Position numbers and translations under genes: made by a program. The notes beneath the pieces were generated by a model. That model saw only the letters and a program-made list of their open reading frames with translations. It did not search any database and was not told the DNA's origin. Shown piece after piece: positions 12,001 to 49,806 of a DNA stretch of 63,639 nt; position 1 is the stretch's first letter, and every line of letters begins with the position of its first letter. Origin of the DNA: an uncultured Planctomycetales bacterium (GTDB lineage: Bacteria; Planctomycetota; UBA1135; CAZMYG01); assembly GCA_964570465.1 (NCBI GenBank), contig CAZMYG010000002.1, positions 1 to 63,639 of the forward strand. The letters run 5' to 3'.

Positions 12001-12249
12001 AGTGCGAAGAATTTGTACGAACTGTGCCGGGGTTGGTGGAAGAGCTATTACTGGCTAGGAAAAACTCTTATTGCGTGCGGAAAAACGGCTGAAGGCGGAG
12101 CGTGGATTTACAACGCACATCAAATCAATTCTTACAACCCTCAATTATTGTTTGAGCTGTCTAAGCTTTATGAAAACCTGGGGGATTCAGAGAAAGCAGA
12201 GCAAAGCTACCGCCTTGCATGTAATACCTTGGAGTGTACAGCGCCATGA
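9064..12249 (+). CDS. Multidomain glycosyltransferase: GT4 domain, a second degenerate GT4-like domain, and C-terminal TPR
   Basis: Domain 1 carries YTMFETDRIP..DEIWVPSQFN and SRGEGWGMPYMEAMAMELP (EX7E). Domain 2 has VDEIWVPSEKW, but at the EX7E position it reads RFTFHEKEAIEAM. The C-terminus has TPR-like helices. 1061 aa. Confidence 0.8.
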   Translation: MKANSLIAPELVWVGPVAGRNGYASAARNLLLGLHSLRFPVSLREWTVENGTQEMSGDHDTLEWYLEMSRRPITEGSVCVFNHSPTRYHQVDILDEMRAVNPGMGRYIVYTMFETDRIPLAWVETLGRFDEIWVPSQFNHRTFSNSGLDSKKIRTIPLSIDTRKYDPRGQHPLWTSDPDQFRFLSVFEWTPRKGWDVLVRAYCEEFAPDEPVSLTLRTYRGIGSNLARKTSIKEELVAFIETRLGKTLSAIPTLEIDESNLSNQAMPRLYQGYDAFVLTSRGEGWGMPYMEAMAMELPTAAPNWGGHLDFMNSQNSYLIDIESVTPIAREQVVENPLYAGHFWAEPSVASTRRVLREMFESREQGREKGKIARLEITKKYDVEVVSKNVSNRVLELGGGRCSWAEKLPQSIEINQTAKMEVTSTIRVALRSGRAQHGDWHRSEDRFLAQFSPENGFQLVDERDKAQILISMDSSPSLEPPQAGCKWIWFVPLPFAGIPEEWMSALTHRVDEIWVPSEKWRDIYRSAGISDHRIHVIPFGVDSELFSPEAKALALPLDQKFRFLSILKPTEFDGFDNLCHMYFHCFTARDDVALVVRLLATENSQEMEQMKAIVERYRKYSAFPPVLFIEEDFGDQELPGLYNACQAFLAPYRFTFHEKEAIEAMSCGLPVITSLGCGLDDLLAEGISFSYPSSTVRIHPKTERPDSVDQKNARVVYSFTDVSRRLLRRLASERLLVKKTGERAREYVLAHRSWKRCLDSVMHRIHVLLEGKTEAPIAKITALLPKGQTLPQSSHALQRHNLEIAVSDTRFLKTLHLELHKDFPGPILLSSGSFQSPPEFLNRLIEDLQTHPEVQAVVHHGQSGLLALLRNSRIPWEIPVHESFSSGASLLEWFRLERVRKTILDREFQDLRFDADANWEKESQAIRALEMSQKEREVNALDAAGAYLLSSLESKPNYAASLEALIQLYLQLENQTGALRSAKNLYELCRGWWKSYYWLGKTLIACGKTAEGGAWIYNAHQINSYNPQLLFELSKLYENLGDSEKAEQSYRLACNTLECTAP

Positions 12250-14999
12250 ACTGGGTTTGGCAATCACGTCTATTTGGCAGAAGCGGCTACGAGATGTTTT
12301 CTCGAGCCCTGATGAAAGAACTCTATCGAAGGAACCGCGAGGTGAGCTATCTACATTTGATTGCTGAAAGGGATAACCGAAACGAATTTACTCCGGAGCC
12401 TTGGTATCAAACTGCTTTGCAGCGGCCGATTCCTCTAGGTTCGACGCACGTTCTTTTCCATACTCCCGCGGGACATTCTGGAAGTAACTTTGCCCGCGAA
12501 GCTCGTTCGATGAATCTAGGTCATAGCAGATATGTCTGCTATACGATGTTTGAAACGGATCGTATCCCGGCGACTTGGGTGCGAGCGTTGGACTCGGTAA
12601 ATGAAGTTTGGGTGCCTACTCAATTCAATGTGGAAACATTTTCATTGTCCGGCATTCCTAGAGAGAAAATACGAGTCATGCCGTTGGGGATTGATGCGAG
12701 CCTGCTTGAAGTGGAAAAAGGTGCAGAAAGTCGCTCTCGCAATCAACCGTTTCGATTCCTTTCGACCTTCGAATGGACTTGGCGCAAAGGTTGGGATGTG
12801 CTTTTGCGCGCTTACTTTGAAGAATTTCAAAGTCATGAGAATGTAGAGCTTGGCTTACTGGCTTACAGAGGTGGTGGAGCAAACGTTCACGACAAGCGCA
12901 GTATTCGCGAGAGGATCGAAACTTTTCTTCGAGAAGAATTAAAAGTAGATCCGACACGAGTCCCGCGACTCACATTGTTTGAGGACAGAGTCCCCGATCA
13001 AGATTATGCAGCGTTTTGCAAAAGCTTCGATGCGTTTGTATTGCCAACTCGCGGAGAAGGTTGGGGATTGCCATTACACGAATCCATGGCGATGGGGATC
13101 CCAGTTGCTGCGACGAATTGGGGTGGGCAGCTTGAATTTCTCAAGCAGGGGCTTTTTTTCCCAATTGAAATCGAAGGTTTACAATTAGCAGGTCTCGATC
13201 AACTCCGGGACAATGTTTTGTTTGCAGGGCAGCGTTGGGCGGAACCTTCGGTTGCTTCGACCAGAGCCGCAATGCGGCAGATCTTCGAAAATCCAGAGCA
13301 AGCGAAACGAATTGGAAAAGAAGGGCAAGCATACGTTCTAGAAAATTTTTCGATTGAAAAAGCCGCAGACCGAATTCTCAAGCGGATTGAAGAAATCACG
13401 CCTTCTTCCTGTGTGTGGACCCTTCCTAACGTCGATCAAGTGAAGCCTGAGAAGTCTATGAAATTTCTATGGGCTGGGGACGATGCCAAAGAGGATGGTT
13501 TAAGCCTGCTATTGCCCTGCTTCATTGCCGTGTTTGGGAAAGAAGACCCTGCAATTTTGAAAATTGCTCCTTTTGATGGACGTGAAAAAGCAGAAATCCA
13601 AAGCTGGACGAGTGCGTACCAGAAACTGGCTCCAGGTCTTTCGATTGAAGATTCTGAGCCCTTAAAAAACATCGAGGATTTTCGAGCGGCTTTGCGCGAT
13701 GTAGACGTGTTTGTATTTCCTGCTTACGCGAGGGACAGGCGCGGACTTTGCCGTGAGGCTGCGCGTTTAGGCAAGGCGGTCATCGCGACAGAGGAACTCT
13801 TACCTGTAGAACTACGGCAAGAAGGCCGGGCTTTTCCCCTTGCTTCATGGATGGCGCGTAGAAAAGGGAAAACCGAGCCAGAGTTAATTTTTAAACCTTT
13901 TCCCAATGTATTAGGAGCGGTTTTACGCTGGGCGCTGTCTCATCCAGGCTCTGTTAGAACGGTGGGCAAAACAGCGAGCGATGTTGATTTTGAGGACGTG
14001 AGTAGTGTCAAAACCATCAGCCTGTATTCCCAGAGCCAATACACATCGTTGAATTCCAGGATTCTTCTTCGGGGACTTCCGTCCTTCAATCACATAGAGG
14101 ATTTCTCAACGGCGTTGAACCGAGCATGTTTTCATCATCCTCAAGAAGAAATCATGGGGGTTGTCATTGGACGCGTTCCTGCAATGACCTTGGAAGCGAG
14201 TGTTGCAGAGCTGGAAAGGAATCCCAGTGCGACTGCAAATTTTTATTGTCTGGATTCTCAGAATGCCGTTCTTTGGCTGAGGAAGCTTCAGTCATTGCAA
14301 TATACTTCTTTTGACGCGAGTTTTTCTGGGGTCGAGTGTTTGAGAGAGTTTGTTCGCAGCATGAGTTCACAAGCTGCGACGGTCTTAGGCGATGGCGCCT
14401 CTCCCTGCGAAAATCCGTCAGATCCTATTTCCTTGCTTAGTTCGGCCGAGTCTTTAGTTCGCAATGGATTGCGTGACCAGGCCATAGAAAAGCTTTATGC
14501 GGTACTTAAAGCAAAACCCGACTATCCCGCTGCAATCGCGCTGCTTGTTGAGTTGCTGTTAAGCACTGGTAATTCCTTCGATGTGCAGGAGATTGAGAGA
14601 CTGTTGAAATCCTATTTGTTTATAAGGCCGTCGGATTCGCTTTGTCGTCACCTTTGGGGTGTGTATCTCTTTACACAATCGCGTTTCAAGGAAGCGAGCG
14701 AACATCTCAGTTTTGCCACGCGAGTGGACAAAGAGAGTTCTCAGATCTGGAATGACTTGGGCGTGGTTCAGGTTTGCGAGGGGCAAGTGAAAGAAGCGTT
14801 GGAATCGCTTCAGAAAGCCTGCTCGCTGGACGAAAAGAATCTCGGCGCTTTGAAAAATCGCATCGATCTTTTGAGTTCCCTAGGAAGACACCAAGAAGCT
14901 TCTGGATACTTGCGTCAAGCGGTGCTTGCAAATCCTCAAGAGAACGATCTGAAAGAGAGACTTGTTCGTTTGGAATTTGCCGGAGCCACTCGTCCATGA
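12246..14999 (+). CDS. Paralogous GT4 glycosyltransferase with C-terminal TPR repeats
   Basis: YTMFETDRIP..NEVWVPTQFN and TRGEGWGLPLHESMAMGIP. The C-terminal TPRs include KAKPDYPAA...LDEKNLGALKNR. ATG 12246 makes an ATGA overlap with the upstream stop. Confidence 0.8.
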   Translation: MNWVWQSRLFGRSGYEMFSRALMKELYRRNREVSYLHLIAERDNRNEFTPEPWYQTALQRPIPLGSTHVLFHTPAGHSGSNFAREARSMNLGHSRYVCYTMFETDRIPATWVRALDSVNEVWVPTQFNVETFSLSGIPREKIRVMPLGIDASLLEVEKGAESRSRNQPFRFLSTFEWTWRKGWDVLLRAYFEEFQSHENVELGLLAYRGGGANVHDKRSIRERIETFLREELKVDPTRVPRLTLFEDRVPDQDYAAFCKSFDAFVLPTRGEGWGLPLHESMAMGIPVAATNWGGQLEFLKQGLFFPIEIEGLQLAGLDQLRDNVLFAGQRWAEPSVASTRAAMRQIFENPEQAKRIGKEGQAYVLENFSIEKAADRILKRIEEITPSSCVWTLPNVDQVKPEKSMKFLWAGDDAKEDGLSLLLPCFIAVFGKEDPAILKIAPFDGREKAEIQSWTSAYQKLAPGLSIEDSEPLKNIEDFRAALRDVDVFVFPAYARDRRGLCREAARLGKAVIATEELLPVELRQEGRAFPLASWMARRKGKTEPELIFKPFPNVLGAVLRWALSHPGSVRTVGKTASDVDFEDVSSVKTISLYSQSQYTSLNSRILLRGLPSFNHIEDFSTALNRACFHHPQEEIMGVVIGRVPAMTLEASVAELERNPSATANFYCLDSQNAVLWLRKLQSLQYTSFDASFSGVECLREFVRSMSSQAATVLGDGASPCENPSDPISLLSSAESLVRNGLRDQAIEKLYAVLKAKPDYPAAIALLVELLLSTGNSFDVQEIERLLKSYLFIRPSDSLCRHLWGVYLFTQSRFKEASEHLSFATRVDKESSQIWNDLGVVQVCEGQVKEALESLQKACSLDEKNLGALKNRIDLLSSLGRHQEASGYLRQAVLANPQENDLKERLVRLEFAGATRP

Positions 15000-17515
15000 A
15001 ATCTGACAACACCAAAACTCGATACTCGATGCTTTGGAGCGCTCCGTTATTCGATCCCAGCGGATATGCGGAAGATGCCCGCAATCTAATTCTCGCGGCA
15101 GATTCGGTTCGAATTCCTGTCCGTGCAAATGAAGTTCGCTGGAGTCAAAGACCTTGTGTATTAGAGCCTACTGCGGCAGCGCGTTTGCGTGAACTTCTGG
15201 GCGCTAGGATTTCTGAATCCATTGTCAATGTCTGCCATATTTTCCCCTCCTATTTTGTGCGCGCCGAAGGTGCAGTCCGAAATGTCGGTCGCACCATGTT
15301 CGAAACGGATCGACTCCCTGAAGTCTGGGCTGCGAAGTGCAATGAAATGGACGAGATTTGGGTACCGTCCAGTTTTAACGTAGAAACTTTCGCGCGCTCC
15401 GGGGTGGATTTAGATCGCTTGCGTGTACTCCCGATGGCTTTGGATGCGAAGTTGTATGCAAAACAAACTGCAGCTTTACCGTTTCGAGATGGATTGGGTT
15501 TTGTATTTCTCTCTTCCTTCGATTGGCAGCTGCGTAAGGGGTGGGATTTGCTTCTCACGGCATACTGTAGAGAATTCAAGAAGGATAAGGATGTCGCATT
15601 AGTATTTAAGGTCTATTCCTCGCGCGGGAGATCTCTCGAAGAACTTCAGAAAATGGCGAGTGATTTTGTGCGAGATCAGATCGGGATGAATCCCCAAGAG
15701 GCTCCACGCATTCTCTTCCTCGACGATTCTATTCCCTCTGCAGATATGCCTAGCCTGTATCGAAGTGCAGATTGTTTTGTGTTGCCGACTCGCGGAGAAG
15801 GTTGGTGCCGTCCTTTCATGGAATCAATGGCTTGTGGAGTGCCAGTGATCGGAACGAGATTTGGCGGGCATTTGGATTATATGCATGAGGGGAATTCCTT
15901 ATTGCTCGATTGCGCGATTGTGCCGGTTTCTGAAGAGGCAGTGAAAGAGGCTCCCGTATTCCACAAACATCGTTGGGCAGAGCCGATTGTGGAACATTTG
16001 CGAGAGTTGATGCGACAAGCGTTTACAGATCGAAAGCAAATGAAGCAAATGGGAGAGCGCGCGCGACAAGAAATACTTTCGAGCTATAGCCAAGAAGCCA
16101 TTGGAAATCGAATTGCTAGCCTAATCTTTGGTGAAGAGCCTGTGAGAAGAATGCAGGTTCAGGAATTGGCGCCGTCTTCTCAATCTGCAAGCATCCAAAA
16201 GGACGCAGAGCCTGCCTCTCAAGCCATACGTGTGCAATGGGAAGGTTCTTGGTTTGTGAATCACTCTCTTTCAAAAATAAATCGCGAGATCGTTTCTCGT
16301 CTGATGGAGAAACCTCAATTGGAGTTTTCTTTAATTCCTTTTGAGCGAGATGAATTCGAGCCTGGAGGAGATGGAGGTCCCCACGCTGGTTTGCGCTCGA
16401 AAATTTCTAAGGGACTCTCTGGCCCCGCTGACTTCGTCGTTCGTCACCGCTGGCCGCCAAAGCTTGAAGCGCCAGAATCTGGGCGATGGATTTGGATACA
16501 GCCCTGGGAATATGGAAGCTTACCTGTGACCTGGGCTAAAACAGTGCGCGAGAACGTCGACGAAGTGTGGGCCCCATCTCAATATGTGCGCCGTCTTTAT
16601 ATCGAAGCAGGGCTGAATCCAGATCGAGTTGTTGTGATTCCTAATGGAGTCGATACCAAAGTATTTCATCCTCAAGCGGCACCCATGACTCTTCCTACAA
16701 CCCGACGGTTTCGATTTCTTTTTGTGGGCGGAACGATGTGGCGCAAAGGGATTGATGTTCTGTTGACTGCATACAGCGCTGCGTTTTCGAATCGTGATGA
16801 TGTCTGTCTCGTGATCAAGGACATGGGGAGAGATACTTTTTATCGAAACATGAATTCGTTAGAGATGATTCAAAGGATCCAGGATTCTCCTGGAGCCCCG
16901 GAAATTGTCTACATTGATCGCACTTTGAGTGAGCAGGAGTTGGCGGGTCTTTACACTTCCTGCCAATTACTCGTACATCCCTATCGCGGAGAAGGGTTTG
17001 GAATGCCCGTTGCTGAAGCCATGTCCTGTGGGTTACCTGTGCTCGTGACTCAGGGCGGAGCCTGCGATGATTTCTGCGATGAAGAAAATTCCTATCAAAT
17101 TCCCGCGCGCCGACGTGTTCTTTCGGATGTTGGGATGGAAACAGTCGGAACGCCTTGGGTGCTCGAACCCGATGCGACGATTTTGGCTCGCAGGATGAGA
17201 GAAATCGTGGCGGATTCTGAAGGGCGGAAACAAAAAGGTGAGCGAGGTCGCGAGCGAGTGGAAAGAAATTTAAGTTGGGAAAGAGTGGCGGCGCTTGTGG
17301 AGTCTCGATTTTCGGAGTTGATCTCCCGTCCAGTTTTCCGTGAGCAAGAGTGGGCGATGCCAGAGGCAAATACTTCTCGAAGCGACCAGGGGATGATTCA
17401 AAAATTGCAAGAAGCCATTGATCTTTTAGAGCTCTATTTGTCTCAACACCCCGAAGACGAAACCATTCGCGCAAAACTCCAAGAGTTGCGCAGCAAGACT
17501 GGTTCAGGTCCCTAG
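14996..17515 (+). CDS. Paralogous double-GT4 glycosyltransferase
   Basis: Domain 1: RTMFETDRLP..DEIWVPSSFN and TRGEGWCRPFMESMACGVP. Domain 2: VDEVWAPSQY and PYRGEGFGMPVAEAMSCGLP, an intact EX7E. ATG 14996 makes an ATGA overlap; the track start at 14774 lies inside the previous gene. Confidence 0.8.
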   Translation: MKSDNTKTRYSMLWSAPLFDPSGYAEDARNLILAADSVRIPVRANEVRWSQRPCVLEPTAAARLRELLGARISESIVNVCHIFPSYFVRAEGAVRNVGRTMFETDRLPEVWAAKCNEMDEIWVPSSFNVETFARSGVDLDRLRVLPMALDAKLYAKQTAALPFRDGLGFVFLSSFDWQLRKGWDLLLTAYCREFKKDKDVALVFKVYSSRGRSLEELQKMASDFVRDQIGMNPQEAPRILFLDDSIPSADMPSLYRSADCFVLPTRGEGWCRPFMESMACGVPVIGTRFGGHLDYMHEGNSLLLDCAIVPVSEEAVKEAPVFHKHRWAEPIVEHLRELMRQAFTDRKQMKQMGERARQEILSSYSQEAIGNRIASLIFGEEPVRRMQVQELAPSSQSASIQKDAEPASQAIRVQWEGSWFVNHSLSKINREIVSRLMEKPQLEFSLIPFERDEFEPGGDGGPHAGLRSKISKGLSGPADFVVRHRWPPKLEAPESGRWIWIQPWEYGSLPVTWAKTVRENVDEVWAPSQYVRRLYIEAGLNPDRVVVIPNGVDTKVFHPQAAPMTLPTTRRFRFLFVGGTMWRKGIDVLLTAYSAAFSNRDDVCLVIKDMGRDTFYRNMNSLEMIQRIQDSPGAPEIVYIDRTLSEQELAGLYTSCQLLVHPYRGEGFGMPVAEAMSCGLPVLVTQGGACDDFCDEENSYQIPARRRVLSDVGMETVGTPWVLEPDATILARRMREIVADSEGRKQKGERGRERVERNLSWERVAALVESRFSELISRPVFREQEWAMPEANTSRSDQGMIQKLQEAIDLLELYLSQHPEDETIRAKLQELRSKTGSGP

Positions 17516-36972: not shown

Positions 36973-37809
36973 ATGGGTCTTCGGATAAATACCAACATTG
37001 CGGCAATCGACGCGCAACGCAACCTGTCCGCCGTGACGGGGCGATTGTCGAAGAACTTTGCCCACTTGTCTTCTGGTTTGAGATTGACTGGTGCGGCAGA
37101 CGGTGCTGCTGAACTCGCTCAGGCAGAACGCTTGGGTGCTGACGTACGCGCCTACAACCAAGCACTTCGTAACTCGAACGACGCAGTTTCGCTCGCGCAA
37201 ACTGCGGACGGTGCGGCTGGCGAAGTCGGTGACATTTTGAAACGCTTGAAGGAAATCGTTCTGCAAGCGAAGAACGGTACGGTACAGAACGCGGATAAAG
37301 ATACGTTGAACACAGAGTTCAGCGACTTGATCAACGAAATCGACCGAATCGCTTCGACCACCAAGTTCAATAACATTGCCTTGTTGGACGGAACGAATTC
37401 GTTGATTACCTTCCAAGTCGGTATCTCGAGTTCTTCGAACGATACGATCAGCGTGTCCTTGTCCGATCTCGATAAAACTGCTCTATCTTTGACAAGCTTG
37501 AACACTTCTTCACTCGTCACTGGTGGACAGTTGGATACTGCACTCTCTCGAGTAGATAGTGCAATCGATACGGTCAACAATGCTCGCGGTCGTGCGGGTG
37601 CTGCTTTGAGCCGATTGAATTCGACACAAAGCATCTTGGCGATCACCGCCCAGAACCTCGATGCCGCTCGTTCGCGAATTCGAGACGTGGACGTCGCCTT
37701 CGAAACGTCCGACTTGACCCGTAACTCAATCATCCAGCAATCGGCTATTGCGATCTTGGCTCAGGCCAATATCCGACCGAATGCGGCTCTCTCGCTGCTG
37801 CAAGGTTAA
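36973..37809 (+). CDS. fliC: Flagellin (short, D0/D1-only size)
   Basis: N-terminus MGLRINTNIAAIDAQRNLS...LSSGLRL. C-terminus RSRIRDVDVAFETSDLTRNSIIQQSAIAILAQANIRPNAALSLLQG. 278 aa; SD AAGGAG lies 6 nt upstream. Confidence 0.95.
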   Translation: MGLRINTNIAAIDAQRNLSAVTGRLSKNFAHLSSGLRLTGAADGAAELAQAERLGADVRAYNQALRNSNDAVSLAQTADGAAGEVGDILKRLKEIVLQAKNGTVQNADKDTLNTEFSDLINEIDRIASTTKFNNIALLDGTNSLITFQVGISSSSNDTISVSLSDLDKTALSLTSLNTSSLVTGGQLDTALSRVDSAIDTVNNARGRAGAALSRLNSTQSILAITAQNLDAARSRIRDVDVAFETSDLTRNSIIQQSAIAILAQANIRPNAALSLLQG

Positions 37810-40170: not shown

Positions 40171-40535
40171 ATTCCACAACGGCATATTTGGAGGACCTGA
40201 TTGAGAAAACCACTCGCTGGCTTGCTGCTATTGACGAAGGCGATTTCAAAGCGTTGGAAGTGATGGGGTCGATCTGTGAACAGTCTCTCGCTCGTTTTCA
40301 GCAGGAAGGGACTTCACAATTTTCCGATTCGCTGCAAGACGCAGCAGAACGCGAGAGAGTCAAACTTCTCCTGGAAAAACTTCGGGGATTGACCGCTCTG
40401 TGCATTTCGAGGGCTCAAGAAAAACAACGGGAAGTAGCGGTATCGCTTGAGAAGACTCAGTCTGCAAGGCAAGTATTAGAAGCCTTGAGTGCGACCGAAG
40501 TTGAGCAGGTATCGAGCGTTGACCAAAGCGCGTGA
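40167..40535 (+). CDS. Helical 122-aa protein, possibly a FliT/FlgN-like export chaperone
   Basis: ATGA overlap with the fliS stop. The segment WLAAIDEGDFKALEVMGSICEQSL resembles the FliT A..G.W..L pattern. This is a weak similarity judged by eye. Confidence 0.4.
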   Translation: MNSTTAYLEDLIEKTTRWLAAIDEGDFKALEVMGSICEQSLARFQQEGTSQFSDSLQDAAERERVKLLLEKLRGLTALCISRAQEKQREVAVSLEKTQSARQVLEALSATEVEQVSSVDQSA

Positions 40536-42586
40536 CGCGGCACCGTCCACGCTGTATGGCAAGAAGGAAGGAGACGATGTATCTCGCATTAGTTCTGCCC
40601 CTTATTCAAACCATTGAACTCGCTTCCATAGAGGAACTTCAGTCCTCCCAAATTCAAGCGCAGGCCTCTTTCGGCAGTTCTGTTGCGGTTGTTCCAGATC
40701 TTGATGGCGATGGTGTCGCGGATTTCGCCGTCGGAGCCGACCGAGAAGATTTGGGAGAAGATCTTGAGGATGCGGGAGCGGTCTATGTGTTCTCTTCGGC
40801 AACGAGGAACGTTTTGCATCGCGTCGTCTCGCCAACCCCTACTGCCGCGGGATTTTTCGGCGTATCTGTCGCTGGGATTGAAGATCTCGATGGAGATGGC
40901 GCTGGAGAAATATTGGTCGGCACTTATTCAGAATGGGGAGGCGGTGCCCCGGTGAGCTCTGGGCGCGCGCATCTATTTTCTGGCGCAAGCGGAAATTGGA
41001 TTCGTAGTTTTATCTCTCCAAACCAGCAAGGCTTTGCTTACTTCGGAAAGTCCGTTGCCGCGATTCCCGATGTCAACGGTGATGGCAAGATGGATCTCTT
41101 AATTGGGGCGCATGGAGAAAACTTAGGTCCAGGGCTTCAGGATGCTGGACGTGCGTATGTGTTTTCCGGTGCGACAGGAAATCTCATTCGGACTTTAGTT
41201 TCTCCATTCCCCGAGGCTTTCGGATTATTCGGTTATGCGGTGTGCGGAATCGAGGATCTCGATCAAGACGGTCGCGGCGATGCTTTGATTGGAGCGCGAT
41301 TGGAGAATCCGGGAACAACGCCAATTGACGCTGGACGAGCCTATGTGTTTTCCGCTTGGACGGGAACTGTAATCCGTTCTATAGGTTCTCCCAACGAAGA
41401 GGGAAATGGACAATTTGGATTTTCTACTGCTGTCGTTCCGGATACCGATGGAGATGGTTTAGATGAAATTTTAGTTGGGGCCTATTTAGAAGATTCGAAT
41501 CACATTCCTCAACCTCCTCCGAATCCTCCACCTGCGCCACCAGAAGATGTTGGTCGCGCCTATCTTTTTTCTGGCTCGACGGGAAAACTTTTACGGACAT
41601 TCGAATCTGAAAATGAGGAAAATTCTGGACAATTCGCTTATTCGGTCTGCGGTGTCCCCGATGTCGATGGAGATGGATTTGGAGACATTCTCATCGCGGC
41701 GCATCAAGAGAACCTCTCTGAGGAACTCGAATCTGCAGGTCGCGCCTATCTTTTTTCTGGTTCGACGGGTCTTCTCCTACATGTGCTCACTTCGCCACAT
41801 CGTGAATCCTTCGGGAGTTTTGGATTCGCGCTTGCCTCTGCGCCGGATTTAGATGGAGATGGAGCCGGAGAAATTTTGGTGAGCGCGAGTGGTGAGAAAA
41901 TTTCCCAGACAGAATTGGGAGCAGGACGTGCCTATTTCATCAGTTGTCTTGTCGATTCCGATAACGATGGAGTCGGAGATCCGTGTGATCAATGCCCTGG
42001 ATTTGATGACACTCTCGATGCAGATTTCGATGGAATACCAAACGATTGCGACCCGACACCATTTCCGGAAATCATTGCGAGCAATCCCCCAAATGGAATC
42101 ATCGATGCGCGTCAACCAAGCCCCATTACCGGTGGAGCAGCGATGGGCTTTCAACAGATTCAATTAACGTTTTCTGGAAATGGAGTGGCGACGCATTTGC
42201 TCGCGTCGGATCTTGCCGTTTCGGAAGAAGGAGGCGATGGAGTTGCGCCAAACATCAGCGCGATAGAAGCCCTGGACCCGAATGTGGCGTTGGTTAGTTT
42301 GAGCGCCCCTGTTCAAGCGGGCGCCTGGACGCGGATCCGCTACATTCTCAGTGGGAGCGAAATTCGTTTTGGTTATTTGCCTGCCGATGTCAATGGAGAT
42401 GGTTACAGCGCGCCTATGGATATTTTGTATTTGATCAATTACTTCAACGGAGTAGTTTCGCTCCCAATTTGGTCGGCGGATATCAATCGCAACGGACTTG
42501 CTCATCAGTCCGATATTTTACGAGTGGTCGATTTGCTCAATGGTGCGGATGCTTTTGATCCTTGGATTGGCAGAACACTGCCGTAG
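40532..42586 (+). CDS. Seven-repeat FG-GAP (integrin-alpha-like beta-propeller) protein with a TSP3-like Ca-binding linker and a C-terminal dockerin-like domain
   Basis: Seven copies of FG..VA...D(L/V)DGDG..(D/E)(I/L)L(V/I)GA....AGRAY(V/L)FS. Then DSDNDGVGDPCDQCPGFDDTLDADFDGIPNDCDP. Then ADVNGDGYSAPMDILYLINYFNG...ADINRNGLAHQSDILRVVDLLNG. The start is ambiguous: GTG 40532 (GTGA overlap), ATG 40556 (MARRKETMYLALVLPL, signal-like), or ATG 40577 (good SD GGAAGGAG). Confidence 0.8.
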   Translation: MTRHRPRCMARRKETMYLALVLPLIQTIELASIEELQSSQIQAQASFGSSVAVVPDLDGDGVADFAVGADREDLGEDLEDAGAVYVFSSATRNVLHRVVSPTPTAAGFFGVSVAGIEDLDGDGAGEILVGTYSEWGGGAPVSSGRAHLFSGASGNWIRSFISPNQQGFAYFGKSVAAIPDVNGDGKMDLLIGAHGENLGPGLQDAGRAYVFSGATGNLIRTLVSPFPEAFGLFGYAVCGIEDLDQDGRGDALIGARLENPGTTPIDAGRAYVFSAWTGTVIRSIGSPNEEGNGQFGFSTAVVPDTDGDGLDEILVGAYLEDSNHIPQPPPNPPPAPPEDVGRAYLFSGSTGKLLRTFESENEENSGQFAYSVCGVPDVDGDGFGDILIAAHQENLSEELESAGRAYLFSGSTGLLLHVLTSPHRESFGSFGFALASAPDLDGDGAGEILVSASGEKISQTELGAGRAYFISCLVDSDNDGVGDPCDQCPGFDDTLDADFDGIPNDCDPTPFPEIIASNPPNGIIDARQPSPITGGAAMGFQQIQLTFSGNGVATHLLASDLAVSEEGGDGVAPNISAIEALDPNVALVSLSAPVQAGAWTRIRYILSGSEIRFGYLPADVNGDGYSAPMDILYLINYFNGVVSLPIWSADINRNGLAHQSDILRVVDLLNGADAFDPWIGRTLP

Positions 42587-43420: not shown

Positions 43421-44596
43421 TTGAATGACCGTGCCGAGTTCGAGCAAGCACAGCTCATTTTCCAGGAGGCGGTGTCGCATAAAAATGCCGGACGCCTGGA
43501 AAATGCGGAACAACTCTATCGCCAACTCTTAGCGAAATACCCAGAACTTTTTGAAGCTTGGCATAACCTTGCCAATGTTTTGAAAGTGCAGGGGAAATTT
43601 AATCCTGCATTGGAATGCTACCGGAAAGCTCTTTCTCTGCGTCCCGACGATGCCGAGACTCAATTCAATCAAGCAACAACTTATTTACTGTTGGGGGAAT
43701 GGGAAAAGGGTTGGCAGGGATATGAGTCGCGGCTTGCCTTGAAAACGACGAAGCGTGCGAACGCTCTCCCGATCTGGCGTGGCGAAGATATTTCTTCCAA
43801 GGGAATCTTGGTTTATCCAGAGCAAGGTTTTGGAGATGCCATCCAATTTGCTCGCTATCTTCCGCTTCTTCGCGAACGAGCAGAGCGAGTGTATTTTGAA
43901 TCACCAGCTCCATTGCGCCGATTGTTTGAGACTTTGCAAGGAGTCGACGCTTTTGTTGATCCAGGCGAAACAATGCCGCAATGTGCGCTCCAAGTTTCTC
44001 TTTTGAGCCTTCCTAAAATTCTGAATATTCATGTAGATAAAGTTCTTCCTTGCATCCCTTATTTTGCAGTGAAAGAGGAGTGGAAGCGTGCGCAAACTCT
44101 GAATCCCTCTAAAAACGATCTCAAAGTAGGTTTCTGTTGGGCAGGGAATCCGCAATATGGTCAAGATCGTTTTCGATCGACTTCGCTAGACATTTGGAAA
44201 CCGTTATTTCGTATTCCTGGAATTTCTTGGTTTAGCTTGCAAAAGGGAGAGCCCTCTAGAGTTTTAGAAACATTTGAATTCCGGGAAACAATTGTTCCGT
44301 TGGGGGAAAAGCTCCAAGACTTTGCCGATACGGCAGCTGCCATTTCCCAACTCGATCTTATTATCAGCACAGATACGGCTGTTCCTCATCTAGCAGGGGC
44401 ATTGGGCAAGCCAGTTTGGTTGTTGCTTTCCTTGGTGCCTGATTGGCGATGGTTACTTGATCGGCAGGATTCGCCTTGGTACCCCAGTATGAAACTTTTT
44501 CGACAAATTCAACGAGAGGATTGGGGGAGTGTTATCGAGGAGTTGCGCCGCGAGCTGCAAGAACGGATTGGAGTGAATCGACAACTTCTTCCATAA
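43421..44596 (+). CDS. TPR + GT9-like glycosyltransferase (single module)
   Basis: N-terminal TPRs (AEQLYRQLLAKYPELFEAWHNLANVL...). The catalytic part has EQGFGDAIQFARYLPLL, VGFCWAGNPQ, FADTAAAISQLDLIISTDTAVPHLAGALGKPVWLLL and PDWRWLLDRQDSPWYPSMKLFRQ. TTG start as given in the track. Confidence 0.7.
   Translation: MNDRAEFEQAQLIFQEAVSHKNAGRLENAEQLYRQLLAKYPELFEAWHNLANVLKVQGKFNPALECYRKALSLRPDDAETQFNQATTYLLLGEWEKGWQGYESRLALKTTKRANALPIWRGEDISSKGILVYPEQGFGDAIQFARYLPLLRERAERVYFESPAPLRRLFETLQGVDAFVDPGETMPQCALQVSLLSLPKILNIHVDKVLPCIPYFAVKEEWKRAQTLNPSKNDLKVGFCWAGNPQYGQDRFRSTSLDIWKPLFRIPGISWFSLQKGEPSRVLETFEFRETIVPLGEKLQDFADTAAAISQLDLIISTDTAVPHLAGALGKPVWLLLSLVPDWRWLLDRQDSPWYPSMKLFRQIQREDWGSVIEELRRELQERIGVNRQLLP
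44438..44487. repeat. Left arm of a perfect 50-bp inverted repeat
   Basis: The sequence cctgattggcgatggttacttgatcggcaggattcgccttggtaccccag has its exact reverse complement at 44641-44690, checked base by base. Confidence 0.95.
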
Positions 44597-47426
44597 CGCT
44601 CAGCCAGTCGCCTGGCTTCTTTTGGCGGAAGAGTCTCATGCTGGGGTACCAAGGCGAATCCTGCCGATCAAGTAACCATCGCCAATCAGGATTGAAGGGG
44701 AGGAGAGTCCAAGCGGGCTTTCCTAGGGCACCTACAAGATGGGTGACGGAAGTATCAACGGAAATTACCAAATCAAGTTGTTCTATCGCCCAAGCGGTCT
44801 CTGCAAAATCGGTAAGAAATGCAGATAGATCTACAATCGGCATAAACTTTTTGAGTTCCGTGCAAAAATTGCTAGCGGATCCTTTTTGCAAACTAAAAAA
44901 CTGTACGCCAGAAACCTCAGCGAGCGTCTTGAGATAAATTGGAGGCAGGCATCGACGATCGTTATCGACGTGCTTTGGATTCCCTTGCCAGCAAAGTCCA
45001 ATCTTGGGTTGGTTCTGTTGCTCTAAAATTCGGCGAAGTTGCGGCCCTGCTTCGATGTTTGCGCTTAAATACGGTGATTCCTTGGGGATGGTTTTCAGGG
45101 TTGTTTCAAAAATTTTTGGTAGATCGAGCAAGGGTACGTGCAGACAGTCCGGAGGCCTTTTTTGTCCCTTTTCGATGACGAGATCGACGCCTTGCATCGA
45201 TTTAAAAAGTCGTGAGAGACCTGGAGCGCATTCTACTGCGACCATGCCGACTCTGGATTTTACGAGTGCTGCGTAGCGGATGAATTGAATACTGTCTCCA
45301 GCGCCTTGTTCGGTGAGTAGCAAAACCGTTTTCTTTGGAGCCATTTCTCCATTCCAGGTTGGGTTTCTCAATTCATCCGAACTCAGCTCGGCACATTGCC
45401 TCAGTGCGGCGTATTCCTTCCATCCACGATCGAAGTTTCCTTGAGCGAGCAACAGGCAGCCACGATTGAATATGGCTTCCGAAAAATTTGGAACTAACTC
45501 AATGGCGCGATCGAAGTGGGCTAGAGCTTTGGAGTATTCCCCTTGGGATTGGTAATGCAAGGCAAGCATGTTGTGAACATTGGCCATGTCTGGATTGAGT
45601 TCCAGGGCTTTGAAAAAGCAGCGAGTTGCTTTTTCCCTCCAAAAGAATTGGGAATAGCAGATTCCCAAATTGCAGTAGGCAGAGGCCAGAGAATTTTGGA
45701 AATCCTTAGATGGAGTGTATCCTTCTTTGCTTTGCGCCTCGCTAAGTTCAATGCCTTTCTCTAGTTTTTCAATTGCTTGTCCCCAAGCTTTTTCCAAGCT
45801 CAGGATGTTTCCCCATTGTAGGTAGGCGAAAGAATAGTTTGGATTTTCAGTAGCAGCGCGCTCTAGATAAAACAAACTTTCATTTTTTTCTCCGCGCTCA
45901 AAAAGTAGAACGCCTAGATTGCAATGGGCTGTCGAATTTCTGGGATCCACCGAAAGTGCTTCGCGGCAAAGCCGAATTGCTTCTTGCGGGTTGCCTTCCT
46001 GGTTCATTTTTGCAGCACGATTGGCCAAAGAATTAGATTTGCATCGCGCGCTCAAGGGCTGCAGTTCTTTCGACACCTCTTCGAGCACAGATGCCCAATC
46101 TCCAGCACTGGGTTGACGAAACAATTTTGCGGAGGGATACCAAGGACTGTCATCGCGATCGATCATCCATCTCCATTCGGGCGAATGGGGCAGGAGAATC
46201 CAAGTGCGTTTGCCCAAGGCGCCAGCGAGATGTGCGACAGAAGTATCTACGCTGATGACGAGGTCGAGTTCTTCGATCATCGCTGCTGTATCTGCAAAGT
46301 CGGCCCACTGATCTTGATAGTTTTTCATCGGGATTGGCGAGGCGCTCAAATCAGATCCTGGAGTGAGTTTTTGCAGGCTGAACCATTCCACGTTGGGTTG
46401 ACTTGCTAATGGAGTTAGTTCTTGGAGAGGAATGGATCGCATTGAATCCTGGGCATGTCCCGAATTTCCTTGCCAGCAGATTCCGACACGCAAGGCATCG
46501 CTGGCATCTCCTAAGCGTTGTTTCCAATGTTTTTGGTTCGATTTTTCGGCACTGAGATAGGAAAGATACCGAGGCAGAGTTTCTTCGTTGCTGCGGAAAA
46601 TGGAAGGCAAACTGCCGATCGGAATTTGTAAGTCAAAGTGAGGCAGAGCTTCGCCAGCTAGATGTAGTTCGTCGATTCCAGGCACGGTAGCAAACAAACG
46701 TCCGAGAGCTTTTTGACATTGCAACAATACTTTCCCGCCACGGGCTTTCACCATTGGTAAGAAGCGAATCCACTGAATGGCATCGCCATAGCCTTGTTCT
46801 GCATGAACCAAAAGGCTCCGGCCTTGGAAATTTTCTCCCTGCCAAAGCGGTTGCTTGGGAGATCGAGAGATTTCTTCCGGAAATTGCAGACGCCATTCAT
46901 ATTCACGCCAACCCTTTTCAAAATCGCCGTGCAAGAGGTGGAGAATTCCTAAATTGAAGTGAGCTTCGATGGATTTTGGATTGACCAGTAGGGCTTGTTC
47001 GTAGCATTCCAACGATTTTTCGTACTTGCCTAGGAGTCGGTGACAAAACCCTAAGTTCATCCAAGCGGCTTCAAATAGTCTGTCGAGCTCGATAGCCAGT
47101 TGATACTCTTGAACCGCTTCTTCGAGTTTGTTCTCAAGTCGGTAGATATTTCCCCAATAGAAATGAGATTCTGAAAGTTCGGGATTAAGTTGAGTCGCTT
47201 TTTGAACGTGGTGTTGTGCATCTTCAAATTTTCCTAATTTTGCTAAGCACATCCCCAGTCGAGCAAGAGAGGAAGCATCTTGTGGGTTTTGTGTAAGGAC
47301 TTCTTGATAGCAGCGAGCGGCTTCATTCCATTGCTTGCGTTCAAACAAAGAATCGGCCATTTGTTCAAGGCTTTGAGTGGTCGTTGCCACGGTGTTTGAG
47401 GTGTTAGGCCCTGGCTTCGCCGACAT
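44532..47426 (-). CDS. Tandem (TPR + GT9-like) x2 glycosyltransferase
   Basis: Two modules. Module 1 has EQGYGDAIQWIRFLPMV ... DLVISVDTSVAHLAGALGKRTWILLPHSPEWRWMIDRDDSPWYPSAKLFRQ. Module 2 has EQGAGDSIQFIRYAALV ... DLVISVDTSVTHLVGALGKPAWTLLPFNPDWRWLLDRQDSPWYPSMRLFRQ. Each module is preceded by TPRs. The 3' end overlaps the convergent gene by 65 nt. Confidence 0.75.
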   Translation of the reverse strand: MSAKPGPNTSNTVATTTQSLEQMADSLFERKQWNEAARCYQEVLTQNPQDASSLARLGMCLAKLGKFEDAQHHVQKATQLNPELSESHFYWGNIYRLENKLEEAVQEYQLAIELDRLFEAAWMNLGFCHRLLGKYEKSLECYEQALLVNPKSIEAHFNLGILHLLHGDFEKGWREYEWRLQFPEEISRSPKQPLWQGENFQGRSLLVHAEQGYGDAIQWIRFLPMVKARGGKVLLQCQKALGRLFATVPGIDELHLAGEALPHFDLQIPIGSLPSIFRSNEETLPRYLSYLSAEKSNQKHWKQRLGDASDALRVGICWQGNSGHAQDSMRSIPLQELTPLASQPNVEWFSLQKLTPGSDLSASPIPMKNYQDQWADFADTAAMIEELDLVISVDTSVAHLAGALGKRTWILLPHSPEWRWMIDRDDSPWYPSAKLFRQPSAGDWASVLEEVSKELQPLSARCKSNSLANRAAKMNQEGNPQEAIRLCREALSVDPRNSTAHCNLGVLLFERGEKNESLFYLERAATENPNYSFAYLQWGNILSLEKAWGQAIEKLEKGIELSEAQSKEGYTPSKDFQNSLASAYCNLGICYSQFFWREKATRCFFKALELNPDMANVHNMLALHYQSQGEYSKALAHFDRAIELVPNFSEAIFNRGCLLLAQGNFDRGWKEYAALRQCAELSSDELRNPTWNGEMAPKKTVLLLTEQGAGDSIQFIRYAALVKSRVGMVAVECAPGLSRLFKSMQGVDLVIEKGQKRPPDCLHVPLLDLPKIFETTLKTIPKESPYLSANIEAGPQLRRILEQQNQPKIGLCWQGNPKHVDNDRRCLPPIYLKTLAEVSGVQFFSLQKGSASNFCTELKKFMPIVDLSAFLTDFAETAWAIEQLDLVISVDTSVTHLVGALGKPAWTLLPFNPDWRWLLDRQDSPWYPSMRLFRQKKPGDWLSVMEEVVDSLQSVLAARGATPR
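44641..44690. repeat. Right arm of a perfect 50-bp inverted repeat
   Basis: The sequence ctggggtaccaaggcgaatcctgccgatcaagtaaccatcgccaatcagg is the exact reverse complement of 44438-44487. The flanking bases on both sides mismatch. Confidence 0.95.
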
Positions 47427-49806
47427 GTTCTAAGGCCTCCAATGCCTTTTGTGCTTGCTCGTAGTTTGGCCAAATGGAAAGAGCGTCTTTGTAGGCGCGT
47501 TGGGCTTCTTCGATTCGCTGGAGGAATTTCAAAGATTCCCCTCTGCCAAAGTGGGCGATGGGGCCCAAGATTCCAGGCTGCACTGGAACCTGGAAGACCT
47601 TTTCTTGGATCTGCAAAAGTCGATCAAACATTTGCAAACTCAGATGGGCGTTCTTGTTGTGCAAGGCAAGGCAAGCAATCGCGAAAATGAAATTGGGCGT
47701 TTCGACTAGTCGCTGTTTCGCCTGAAGAAGCATTTCTAATGCTTCGCTGCTTTCTCCTCGGTGCATGCGATCGAAAGCATAAAAAGCATAGACCTCGGCA
47801 GCATAAATTTGTTTGCGCGCTTCGGAGGCCGGAAGAGCGTTTAGTAAGGTAAAGGCGCGTTCAATGGCTTGCTTCGATTCTTCGGGGGAAAAAGGGCGAA
47901 GGAAATTCGCGAATTGATACCACGAGTAAGGGTCGTTTGGATTTTGCTGAAGTTGCTTCTCAGTTAGTTTTCGATTTCGTTCGCGTTTCCCTTTCTGCGT
48001 TTCTATTTGATCCTGATGCCCGAAGTGAAGAATTCCAAACTCCGCGCGCAAAATTTCTTGTTTTCGTTCTTGAGCGAGTGCCAGCAACGGTTCCAGGATT
48101 TGTTCATGTACGATATTTTTGAAACGGATGCTTGGGTGATTTCTAAACAACCGAACGACATACAGTTCTTCTTTGACCGTTCCTTGCGAGTCGATGTTTT
48201 TTAAAGGCAGCTCGTAGGCAATTGCTTTCGAATTGTTTAACGCGTTGCGAATCCAACTTGCTGCTTCACCTTCCAGCACTTCATCTGCGTCCAGAAATAG
48301 AATCCATTCTCCACGAGCTGTCTCGATCGAGCGGTTACGTGCACGAGAGAAATCATCTTGCCAGGGATCTTCGATGATTTTTGCTCCGTAGCGTTTTGCA
48401 ATTTCGACGGTTCGGTCAGTTGAGCCGGTATCTACTACGATGAGTTCATCAATGATGCCTTGTACTGAGTGCAGGCATCGTTCCAACGAGTCTTCTTCAT
48501 TGCGAACAATCATGCACAAGGAAAGGAGCGGTGGGGCAGAGGGAGTTGTGTTTGCCCGATTGAGTGCTTGTTTCAGTAGTGGGATTCCAAATTTATTCCA
48601 GTCTGCTGTTGGTTCAGGATTACGTTCAAAATATTTGGTCAGCAATTCCAAAGCATCGAGCTGTTTTTCCTGTGAGAGTAGGAGTTGTGTATAGGAAAGA
48701 GTCGCCGGCAGATAATCCGGAGAAAGGTGTAAGGATTTCTGGTAGGCAGATTCTGCTTTCTCTTTTTGATTTAGCGCGACCCAGCATTGAGCAATTCCAT
48801 ACCAAGAAACAGGACCAGTGATTCCCCATTGCATGGCGATGTTGCTGACGGTATCCGCAAATTTCAAACAGTGCTGATAGTTTTTAATCGCCTCTGCAAA
48901 TGCACTTCGCTGACGCAAAATACATGCCTTGGCAAAGTAAAAGTTTGCAGAAAGTGGGAGTTCGAGTTTTTCTGCGGTATCGAGAGTCTCTGTTGCTTTT
49001 GCCGATTGTCCGGCGGCTTGTAATTCGCTTGCAAGCAACGCGCAAACTTCGGAGGCATAGAGCAAATTCTCACGATGCGCTTTAGGCATTGCCTGAATCA
49101 GGCCCAAGGATTTTTTCAGCGCTTCAATCCCGTGATCGAGATTTTGTTTTCGAAGCCAGTCCCCGTACTTGTACCAGGAGTAGGGATCGTCTGGAAAAAG
49201 TGCTAACTGCTTTTCAAATAATAGCTCGTATCTTTTATCCTTTTGTTTGCGCGACATTTCGTTGCGCAGATATCCGAAGTGTTTGATCTCGGCCTTGCAG
49301 TTTTCTGAGCGCAGACCCATCGGCTCCGCCACGCTTTGTAAATGCCCTAGAATTTGTTCATGTAGAGCGTAGATCCATTTCACGCCGGGAAGATTTCGTA
49401 TCAATCTCGGAAGCAAATAGTGATCTTCCTTGCCATCGTCTAATACATTTGAGAAGTGCAGATAATAGGCATAAACCGTCAAGTCTTTTGCGGCATTACG
49501 TAGAAGCGCTGCGCTGCCTGTTTGCAAAATCTCATCGGCATCAAGCCAAAGAATCCATTCTCCCGTTGCATGAGGGATCGCGGCGTTACGGGCCTCCGCA
49601 AAATCGTCATTCCATTTGTGAGAGAAGACTTTTGCTCCAAAACGTTTTGCGATTTCGATGGAATCATCGGTGGAGCCAGTGTCGACAATGATGATTTCAT
49701 CTACGGCAGGCGCTGCAGCTTCTAAACAACGTGCGAGAATGTGCCCTTCATCACGCACAATCATGCAAAGCGAAATGAGCGATGGCTTTGTGTGTGCCAT
49801 GCTCAT
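47404..49806 (-). CDS. Tandem (GT2 + TPR) x2 glycosyltransferase
   Basis: Two copies of the GT2 core. Copy 1: LCMIVRDEGHILARCLEAAAPAVDEIIIVDTGSTDDSIEIAKRFGAKVFSHKWNDDFAEARN...WILWLDADE. Copy 2: LCMIVRNEEDSLERCLHSVQGIIDELIVVDTGSTDRTVEIAKRYGAKIIEDPWQDDFSRARN...WILFLDADE. Each copy is followed by TPR-like helices. Confidence 0.8.
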   Translation of the reverse strand: MSMAHTKPSLISLCMIVRDEGHILARCLEAAAPAVDEIIIVDTGSTDDSIEIAKRFGAKVFSHKWNDDFAEARNAAIPHATGEWILWLDADEILQTGSAALLRNAAKDLTVYAYYLHFSNVLDDGKEDHYLLPRLIRNLPGVKWIYALHEQILGHLQSVAEPMGLRSENCKAEIKHFGYLRNEMSRKQKDKRYELLFEKQLALFPDDPYSWYKYGDWLRKQNLDHGIEALKKSLGLIQAMPKAHRENLLYASEVCALLASELQAAGQSAKATETLDTAEKLELPLSANFYFAKACILRQRSAFAEAIKNYQHCLKFADTVSNIAMQWGITGPVSWYGIAQCWVALNQKEKAESAYQKSLHLSPDYLPATLSYTQLLLSQEKQLDALELLTKYFERNPEPTADWNKFGIPLLKQALNRANTTPSAPPLLSLCMIVRNEEDSLERCLHSVQGIIDELIVVDTGSTDRTVEIAKRYGAKIIEDPWQDDFSRARNRSIETARGEWILFLDADEVLEGEAASWIRNALNNSKAIAYELPLKNIDSQGTVKEELYVVRLFRNHPSIRFKNIVHEQILEPLLALAQERKQEILRAEFGILHFGHQDQIETQKGKRERNRKLTEKQLQQNPNDPYSWYQFANFLRPFSPEESKQAIERAFTLLNALPASEARKQIYAAEVYAFYAFDRMHRGESSEALEMLLQAKQRLVETPNFIFAIACLALHNKNAHLSLQMFDRLLQIQEKVFQVPVQPGILGPIAHFGRGESLKFLQRIEEAQRAYKDALSIWPNYEQAQKALEALEHVGEARA

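Follow-up and report, generated by a model that had tools for sequence, protein, structure and literature searches.

Non-reciprocal transfer between paralogs on one chromosome is exemplified by tufA and tufB of Salmonella, two genes of ~99% identity that stand in inverse orientation 762 kb apart, in which bounded tracts hundreds of nucleotides (nt) long are homogenized at their synonymous sites and the conversion walk averages roughly 500 nt (PMC5485169). A related outcome is known from quasipalindrome template switching, by which an imperfect repeat becomes perfect in one step, so that clustered changes of several nucleotides and several residues in one arm match the other arm, with no need of long homology (Ripley, 1982; Dutra and Lovett, 2006; PMC7202029). 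The stretch of DNA analysed here (63,639 nt of contig CAZMYG010000002.1 from an uncultured Planctomycetales bacterium, hereafter the window) holds a perfect 50-bp inverted repeat that shares features with both systems. Its arms lie within two convergent genes, gene 1 and gene 2, which are built from modules of tetratricopeptide repeats (TPRs) followed by a glycosyltransferase family 9 (GT9)-like domain. As with the tuf genes, these are inversely oriented paralogs on one chromosome with a bounded tract of homogenized synonymous sites, but they are ~47% identical and 153 nt apart, their tails overlap, and the tract measures ~50-57 nt. As with a processed quasipalindrome, an imperfect repeat seems to have become perfect, but here, unlike in the classical examples, it is the homology of two protein-coding tails that gives rise to the quasi-palindrome.

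The repeat is best explained as the footprint of a recent non-reciprocal copying event, that is, short-tract gene conversion in the broad sense, which would have taken place in the window lineage after its split from the sole ortholog locus found (contig L081 of the Logan assembly ERR13655531). We put the probability of this reading at about 0.85, a figure that applies to the copying event itself and not to its molecular route. Localized gene conversion between the inverted copies had already been offered as an explanation in the initial annotation of the window, and it agrees with what was found: the orthology signal is erased within the arms, L081 is without perfect arms, and the identity is local, lineage-specific and inclusive of all synonymous sites. 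The kind of event is known and ordinary, and the window provides an unusually clean natural example of it; a new regulatory element is not what the repeat reveals.

A script check of positions 44438-44487 against 44641-44690 shows exact reverse complementarity at 50 of 50 positions, and the bases flanking both arms mismatch on either side. Both arms encode the same 17-codon motif, each in its own gene (Table 1). These features had been described correctly in the initial annotation, as had the five differences within the seven codons beyond the arm, four of which are synonymous, and the diverged version of the segment in the third module, which is ~69% identical to the arm with a longest exact run of 8 nt. 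A k-mer scan of the whole window found no second exact inverted repeat of at least 20 nt.

The identity of the arms is far out of keeping with that of the genes around them. Gene 1 has one module and gene 2 has two, an N-terminal and a C-terminal one (N-module and C-module), and the three are pairwise 38-43% identical in protein and 46-51% in DNA. Gene 1 and the C-module of gene 2, in which the arms lie (hereafter W1 and W2C, with counterparts L1 and L2C in L081), are ~47% identical in DNA and 38% in protein; gene 1 is slightly closer to the N-module, at 43% of protein positions, and the ~45% protein identity first estimated for the paralogs gives way to these computed values. Where amino acids are identical the same codon is used in 34-43% of cases across modules, and synonymous sites are near saturation. 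Within the arm, the two genes use the same codon at 14 of 14 informative positions, compared with a background of 35% (0.35^14 = ~4e-7), which bears out the earlier remark that neutral divergence does not predict identical synonymous sites here. The longest exact run is 50 nt between W1 and W2C versus 8-15 nt in the five other paralog comparisons from the two genomes, and when match and mismatch sites were permuted the longest run never exceeded 20 nt.

Comparison with L081 separates the age of the gene arrangement from that of the repeat. A protein search with gene 1 retrieved a close relative on this contig (P0002; 81% amino acid and 82% nt identity), beside which lies the ortholog of gene 2 (73% and 73%); between the two genomes gene 1 is much the better conserved of the adjacent pair (L081 5571-9570). 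The locus is syntenic, with FlaG, FliD, FliS, a small open reading frame (ORF), an FG-GAP protein and a 257-residue ORF ahead of gene 1, and the convergent gene 2, a double GT2 gene, HDOD-GGDEF and FliOPQR after it, and the tails of the two genes overlap by exactly 65 nt, as in the window. The L081 arms, in contrast to those of the window, are complementary at ~35 of 50 positions, with a longest perfect block of 8 nt. Identity within the arm is 50/50 for W1-W2C, 41/50 for W1-L1 and 36/50 for W2C-L2C; the value for W1-L1 equals the background divergence of gene 1, and the gene 2 arm differs from its L081 ortholog at 14 of 50 positions and in four residues. In 17-codon sliding windows, a comparison proposed with the initial annotation, W1-W2C identity reaches 0.90-1.0 at the arm versus 0.61-0.65 for L1-L2C, whereas outside the arm the W1-W2C profile follows that of L1-L2C throughout (0.3-0.65), which leaves a single spike of ~50-57 nt at the arm. 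Since the arrangement is shared with L081 and the arms are imperfect there, the perfect repeat appears specific to the window lineage: on this sequence comparison the arrangement is old and the perfect identity young.

L081 was the sole ortholog locus found among genome representatives, JGI metagenomes and a protein collection. The contig scan of genome representatives gave 80 family members, of which the best was 44% identical, and no ortholog; a JGI metagenome DNA scan for the conserved overlap pattern gave no matches; a metagenome scan with a 21-mer of the arm gave 11 loci, all of them distant family members that match the arm at 35-41 of 50 positions; and a search for orthologous fragments with the 141-residue C-terminal protein sequence gave nothing above 61% identity. 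Long inverted repeats in related loci (L012, L029, L008 and others) were considered and set aside as unrelated to these genes, L012 having been checked.

Polarity was read from a codon alignment of the six modules of the window and L081. Sites with the pattern of orthology (W1 = L1 and W2C = L2C) number 36 in the 60 codons upstream versus none in the arm. At eight arm sites W1, W2C and L1 agree and L2C differs, against three sites of the opposite grouping, and both window arms share six derived states. In protein terms, gene 2 of the window carries D, L, L and Q where gene 2 of L081 and both N-modules carry E, M, then R or I, and S, D or N. Because of this site grouping and the gene-1-type residues in gene 2, there is modest support for gene 1 as the donor and the C-module of gene 2 as the recipient.

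The 5′ boundary of the tract lies between the codons GTG/AAT, which are still orthology-like, and CCT. On the 3′ side, at columns 483-485 of the codon alignment, the tract probably continues a little beyond the perfect arm (Table 1): gene 2 has there a gene-1-type Met (ATG), where gene 2 of L081 and both N-modules have Ala (GCT or GCA), and its AGC ATG AGA resembles the presumed ancestral state of gene 1, which reads AGC ATG CGA in L081. The single AGT/AGC mismatch at the end of the perfect arm seems to have come from a subsequent point change in gene 1. A tract of ~54-57 nt, followed by point changes in gene 1, would account for this end of the patch; alternatively, there may have been two nested events or patchy mismatch repair.

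In such an event, ~50-57 nt of the most conserved motif of gene 1 would have been written over its homolog in the C-module of gene 2, and the copy would read as a perfect inverted repeat because the paralogs are convergent and their motifs lie 153 nt apart. In a single step five residues of gene 2 would have changed (E>D, M>L, R>L, S>Q and A>M), which could be tolerated because the motif is strongly conserved. The repeat need not have a function.

Comparable patches occur elsewhere in the gene family. A codon alignment was made of 119 glycosyltransferase (GT)-domain copies from the fetched loci, and pairs below 0.75 overall nt identity were compared. None of the ~6,900 between-genome pairs had a motif identity of at least 94%, and two had an exact run of at least 30 nt (the longest 31 nt), whereas the 85 within-locus pairs included five with a motif identity of at least 94% and five exact runs of at least 30 nt (206, 67, 50, 41 and 35 nt). 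This enrichment is significant with the window pair (Fisher p = 5e-9) and without it (3e-7). The runs of 206 and 41 nt belong to L005, that of 67 nt to L070 and that of 35 nt to L016, and a pair in L008 is 96% identical in the motif window. Two pairs in L005, and pairs in L070 and L008, have patches that cover the C-terminal motif, all of them in direct orientation on backgrounds of 60-71%; among the converted pairs that of the window alone is inverted, and its background identity (0.47) is the lowest. The comparison suggests that neighbouring paralogs repeatedly exchange short segments, mostly around the most conserved segment, and since such patches also lie between direct paralogs, hairpin potential is unneeded to explain the identity. 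In L043, the aligned GT domains of two copies (3085(-) and 1360(-)) show 99.7% identity and contain an exact run of 800 nt or more; a tandem duplication of very recent date or an assembly repeat would account for them.

By what route was the segment copied? A replication template switch across the pre-existing quasi-palindrome is slightly favoured over RecA-dependent conversion, with a probability of about one half. In the model of Ripley and Lovett the nascent strand would fold back or cross the fork, copy the other arm and return. The imperfect inverted repeat from which such a switch would start is represented, by proxy, in L081, where arms of ~35/50 stand in the same geometry and form a 70% quasi-palindrome in which no perfect block exceeds 8 nt. 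This is far short of the ~20-30 bp generally taken as the minimal efficient processing segment for RecA pairing. A tract of ~50-57 nt is, moreover, far shorter than the tufA/tufB walks. Perfection of a quasi-palindrome is the textbook outcome of template switching (PMC7202029), and yeast coding genes provide reported cases in which the homogenization of inverted-repeat arms replaced several amino acids (PMC8604942).

Several points weigh against copying as set out here, or against the route just favoured. The polarity rests on few sites (eight versus three, plus five residues), and the distinction between a state derived in the window and one lost in L081 depends on site polarity, on the N-modules as outgroup and on one ortholog. 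Just outside the arm, gene 2 has AGC ATG AGA versus AGT ATG AAA in present gene 1, a remnant that one clean event explains less well than two nested events or patchy mismatch repair do. In other genomes the patches lie between direct repeats, which a fold-back template switch cannot make, and this argues that ordinary recombinational conversion operates in the gene family. Classical quasi-palindrome hotspots have stems of ~10-30 nt and short loops, versus 50-nt arms and a 153-nt spacer here. Short-range template switches over hundreds of bp are described in comparative genomics, by at least one account (PMC7954356). Finally, the patch, once made, may now be kept by selection, and the repeat is known from assembled sequence alone.

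The same copying event may instead have run through RecA-dependent recombinational repair, as ectopic conversion between inverted paralogs, which we regard as a possible though less probable route within the same overall reading. The patches between neighbouring direct paralogs elsewhere, on backgrounds of 59-82% identity, favour this route, and the hints of more than one event at the site suggest ongoing exchange. Mismatch repair, on the other hand, would be expected to abort such a heteroduplex. Homology before the event would also have been poor, with arms 70% identical and a block of 8 nt, if L081 is a guide, and a gene-wide identity of 47%. That inversely oriented paralogs undergo conversion in bacteria is well established, the tuf genes being an example, but their tracts extend over hundreds of nt rather than ~50-57 nt (PMC5485169).

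That the perfect 50-bp stem is itself a selected element, whether of RNA (a bidirectional terminator, an RNase III site or a 3′-end stabilizer) or of DNA, is very unlikely. The initial annotation had offered such selection on the nucleic acid as its other explanation, and the stem is indeed very stable: the 321-nt region folds at -201 and -164 kcal/mol (z-scores of -16.9 and -15). The convergent genes also leave no intergenic space for a conventional terminator, and a newly arisen patch could have been co-opted. L081, however, keeps the gene arrangement without the perfect stem, its arms matching at ~35 of 50 positions, and the corresponding region folds at -127 kcal/mol (z = -5.9). Arms that are not identical at the orthologous locus are an outcome by which, according to the initial annotation, such an element would be refuted. 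Inverted homologous coding sequence by itself accounts for all pairing beyond the arms. Sense/antisense pairing is already supplied by the convergent overlap, so that the arms are not needed for it, and identity patches elsewhere in the family are in direct orientation, in which a hairpin cannot form. There is no U-tract after either arm, the flanks ATTGAAGGGG and ...CCTTGGTG being without T or A runs, and Rfam 15 at the gathering threshold gave no matches in the whole window. Like bidirectional intrinsic terminators, the locus has a symmetric hairpin between convergent genes that could fold in both transcripts. Unlike them, it has no short GC-rich stem with flanking U/A tracts; its arms lie within coding sequence around a 153-nt loop and are not conserved in the ortholog. 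Nor would ~45 nt of read-through suffice to form the stem, as had been supposed, since transcription must continue 94 nt past the gene 1 stop to include the whole second arm.

The initial annotation had further stated that no conventional terminator is visible between the genes. A weak terminator-like hairpin does follow the gene 1 stop (Table 1). The region has nine terminator-like sites versus 5.9 +/- 2.6 in shuffled sequences, which is within expectation. The T-run of this hairpin is the antisense of Lys-Lys codons of gene 2, the hairpin is not recognizably conserved in L081, and it is probably fortuitous.

There is also a slim chance that the new perfect repeat has since become functional, either as a RecA substrate for a flip or as a double-stranded RNA (dsRNA) stem that couples messenger RNA (mRNA) decay. 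A flip would invert the 153-bp spacer with the arms in frame and swap the last 36 residues, yielding two in-frame isoform pairs; a long dsRNA stem in read-through transcripts would couple the decay of the convergent mRNAs via RNase III. In either case the identity would be upheld by selection or by continual re-homogenization, with which the hint of two nested events would fit. As regards a site-specific invertible segment, the window and L081 (two genomes) have collinear spacers, and no recombinase is found among the annotated neighbouring genes. Inversion of the spacer was ruled out as a candidate, because the tail of gene 1 is the ortholog of the L081 gene 1 tail and that of gene 2 the ortholog of the L081 gene 2 tail.

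It is highly improbable that the identity or the tail-to-tail arrangement is an artefact produced in assembly or polishing, or by a chimeric junction. Besides the reliance on assembled sequence noted above, exact-product look-ups of both window proteins found no record. Yet L081 comes from an independent assembly and shows the genes convergent there too, with the same 65-nt overlap, both ORFs are open and in frame, and the flanks are diverged paralogs rather than a fold-back palindrome; reads from arms ~70% identical would presumably not cross-map in polishing. The remaining reading, by which the repeat is left over from a recent inverted duplication, or reflects codon bias together with purifying selection on a motif that no other segment of the family matches in conservation, can be considered effectively refuted on the sequence comparisons: conservation of the motif by itself produces identities such as the 35-41/50 that unrelated family members show to the arm, but no between-genome pair comes near 50/50 (chance 0.8^50 = 1e-5 or 0.7^50 = 2e-8), the flanks of the arms are saturated at synonymous sites, and the duplication and the overlap are older than the split of the window and L081.

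Under the copying event that we favour, the locus records a one-step change of several nucleotides and residues in a bacterial gene, copied from a highly diverged paralog (~47%), with the pre-event state preserved in a sister genome. Such copying can mimic positive selection, parallel evolution or a conserved RNA structure, and one ortholog comparison together with a within- versus between-genome family control separates those readings. Recurrent exchange of the C-terminal segment would also matter for phylogenies and specificity predictions of the TPR-GT9-like family.

Table 1. Positions of the inverted repeat, its host genes and associated features (window coordinates unless a locus is named)
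Feature	Position	Strand	Description
Arm 1	44438..44487	+	Gene 1 codons 340-356; encodes PDWRWLLDRQDSPWYPS
Arm 2	44641..44690	-	Gene 2 codons 913-929; encodes the same motif and carries the gene-1-type states D, L, L, Q
Spacer between arms	44488..44640		153 nt; holds the C-terminal tails of both genes
Probable 3′ extension of tract in gene 2	44634..44640	-	Last base of AGC plus ATG AGA (S-M-R)
Homologous motif of third module (gene 2 N-module)	46131..46181	-	PEWRWMIDRDDSPWYPS; diverged, not converted; outgroup for polarity
Tail-to-tail overlap	44532..44596		65 nt, coding on both strands; same length at L081 6682-6746
Gene 1 stop TAA	44594..44596	+	Antisense of gene 2 GTT ATG (Val-Met of SVMEE)
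Gene 2 stop TAA	44532..44534	-	Antisense of gene 1 GTT ATC (Val-Ile of conserved SVIEE)
Weak terminator-like hairpin	44602..44617	+	6 pairs, then TCTTTT; 6 nt after gene 1 stop, inside the gene 2 coding sequence
Gene 1	43421..44596	+	391 residues; one TPR + GT9-like glycosyltransferase module; putative donor
Gene 2	44532..47426	-	964 residues; tandem fusion of two TPR + GT9-like modules; C-module the putative recipient
Comparable patches	L005 1072/2350 and 6931/8449; L070 5740/6988; L008 3061/7402 and 5767/7402; L016 5823/8748		Neighbouring direct paralogs in unrelated genomes

The initial annotation had also drawn attention to the fact that both genes run 36 codons past their arms to stops that share one symmetry centre with the repeat. 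This is correct as observed, with 35 codons and a TAA stop after the 17-codon motif in both genes, but it needs no special explanation beyond indel-free homology and antisense stops. Each stop is the antisense of the Val-Ile or Val-Met codons of the other gene, and the tails are equal and the centre shared because the stretch from the motif to these codons is free of indels. The corresponding codons in L081, GTT ATC and GTC ATG, make the stops TAA and TGA. In each of the four overlapping modules the Val codon ends in T or C, giving TAA or TGA, while the N-modules, which do not overlap, use GTG or GTA, which would make no stop. The window and L081 are 74% identical in the overlap versus 55-59% in the adjacent single-coding tails. 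Elsewhere in the family 29-32 residues follow the motif, so that the 35 found here are slightly long. An origin of the symmetry by palindromic inverted duplication was considered and dropped as unnecessary, homology and homologous antisense stops being sufficient.

The host genes lie in a flagellar cluster, which probably also serves flagellin glycosylation, with flagellin (36973-37809) followed by FliD and FliS, and with a double GT2 gene that has a SunS-like match, FliO, FliP and FlhA; FliOPQR are counted in the same cluster as the glycosyltransferase genes. Gene 1 matches Pfam TPR families and has a sub-threshold match to Glyco_transf_9, and gene 2 matches TPR and Glyco_transf_9 families in two stretches. 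The GT9 (heptosyltransferase-like) Pfam match is weak and lies C-terminal of the TPRs, and in a PDB sequence search the matches cover the TPR part only. FlmG, a flagellin O-glycosyltransferase, consists of an N-terminal TPR domain that binds flagellin and a C-terminal GT-B domain (PMC7591256). The window genes resemble it in their TPR + GT-B-like architecture and in their position near flagellin, FliD and FliS, and differ from it in that their GT domain matches GT9 weakly and that gene 2 is a two-module fusion; by this likeness of architecture alone, an FlmG-type role would be putative.

The gene next to gene 2 (47404-49806, minus strand) encodes another two-module fusion, GT2-TPR-GT2-TPR, of 800 residues. 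It shares 23 nt (47404-47426) with the start of gene 2, its match to SunS-like peptide glycosyltransferases falls below the curated cut-off, and its L081 ortholog has the same architecture. Elsewhere in the window, the mechanical ORF list gives two long plus-strand ORFs (12234-14999 and 14774-17515; 921 and 913 residues) with 226 nt in common, an overlap that may be a start-codon artefact or a frameshift. The window also contains one exact direct repeat of at least 20 nt, a 23-nt sequence at 41552-41574 and 41738-41760 within the gene for the FG-GAP repeat protein (40532-42586), where it presumably lies between internal repeats of the protein.

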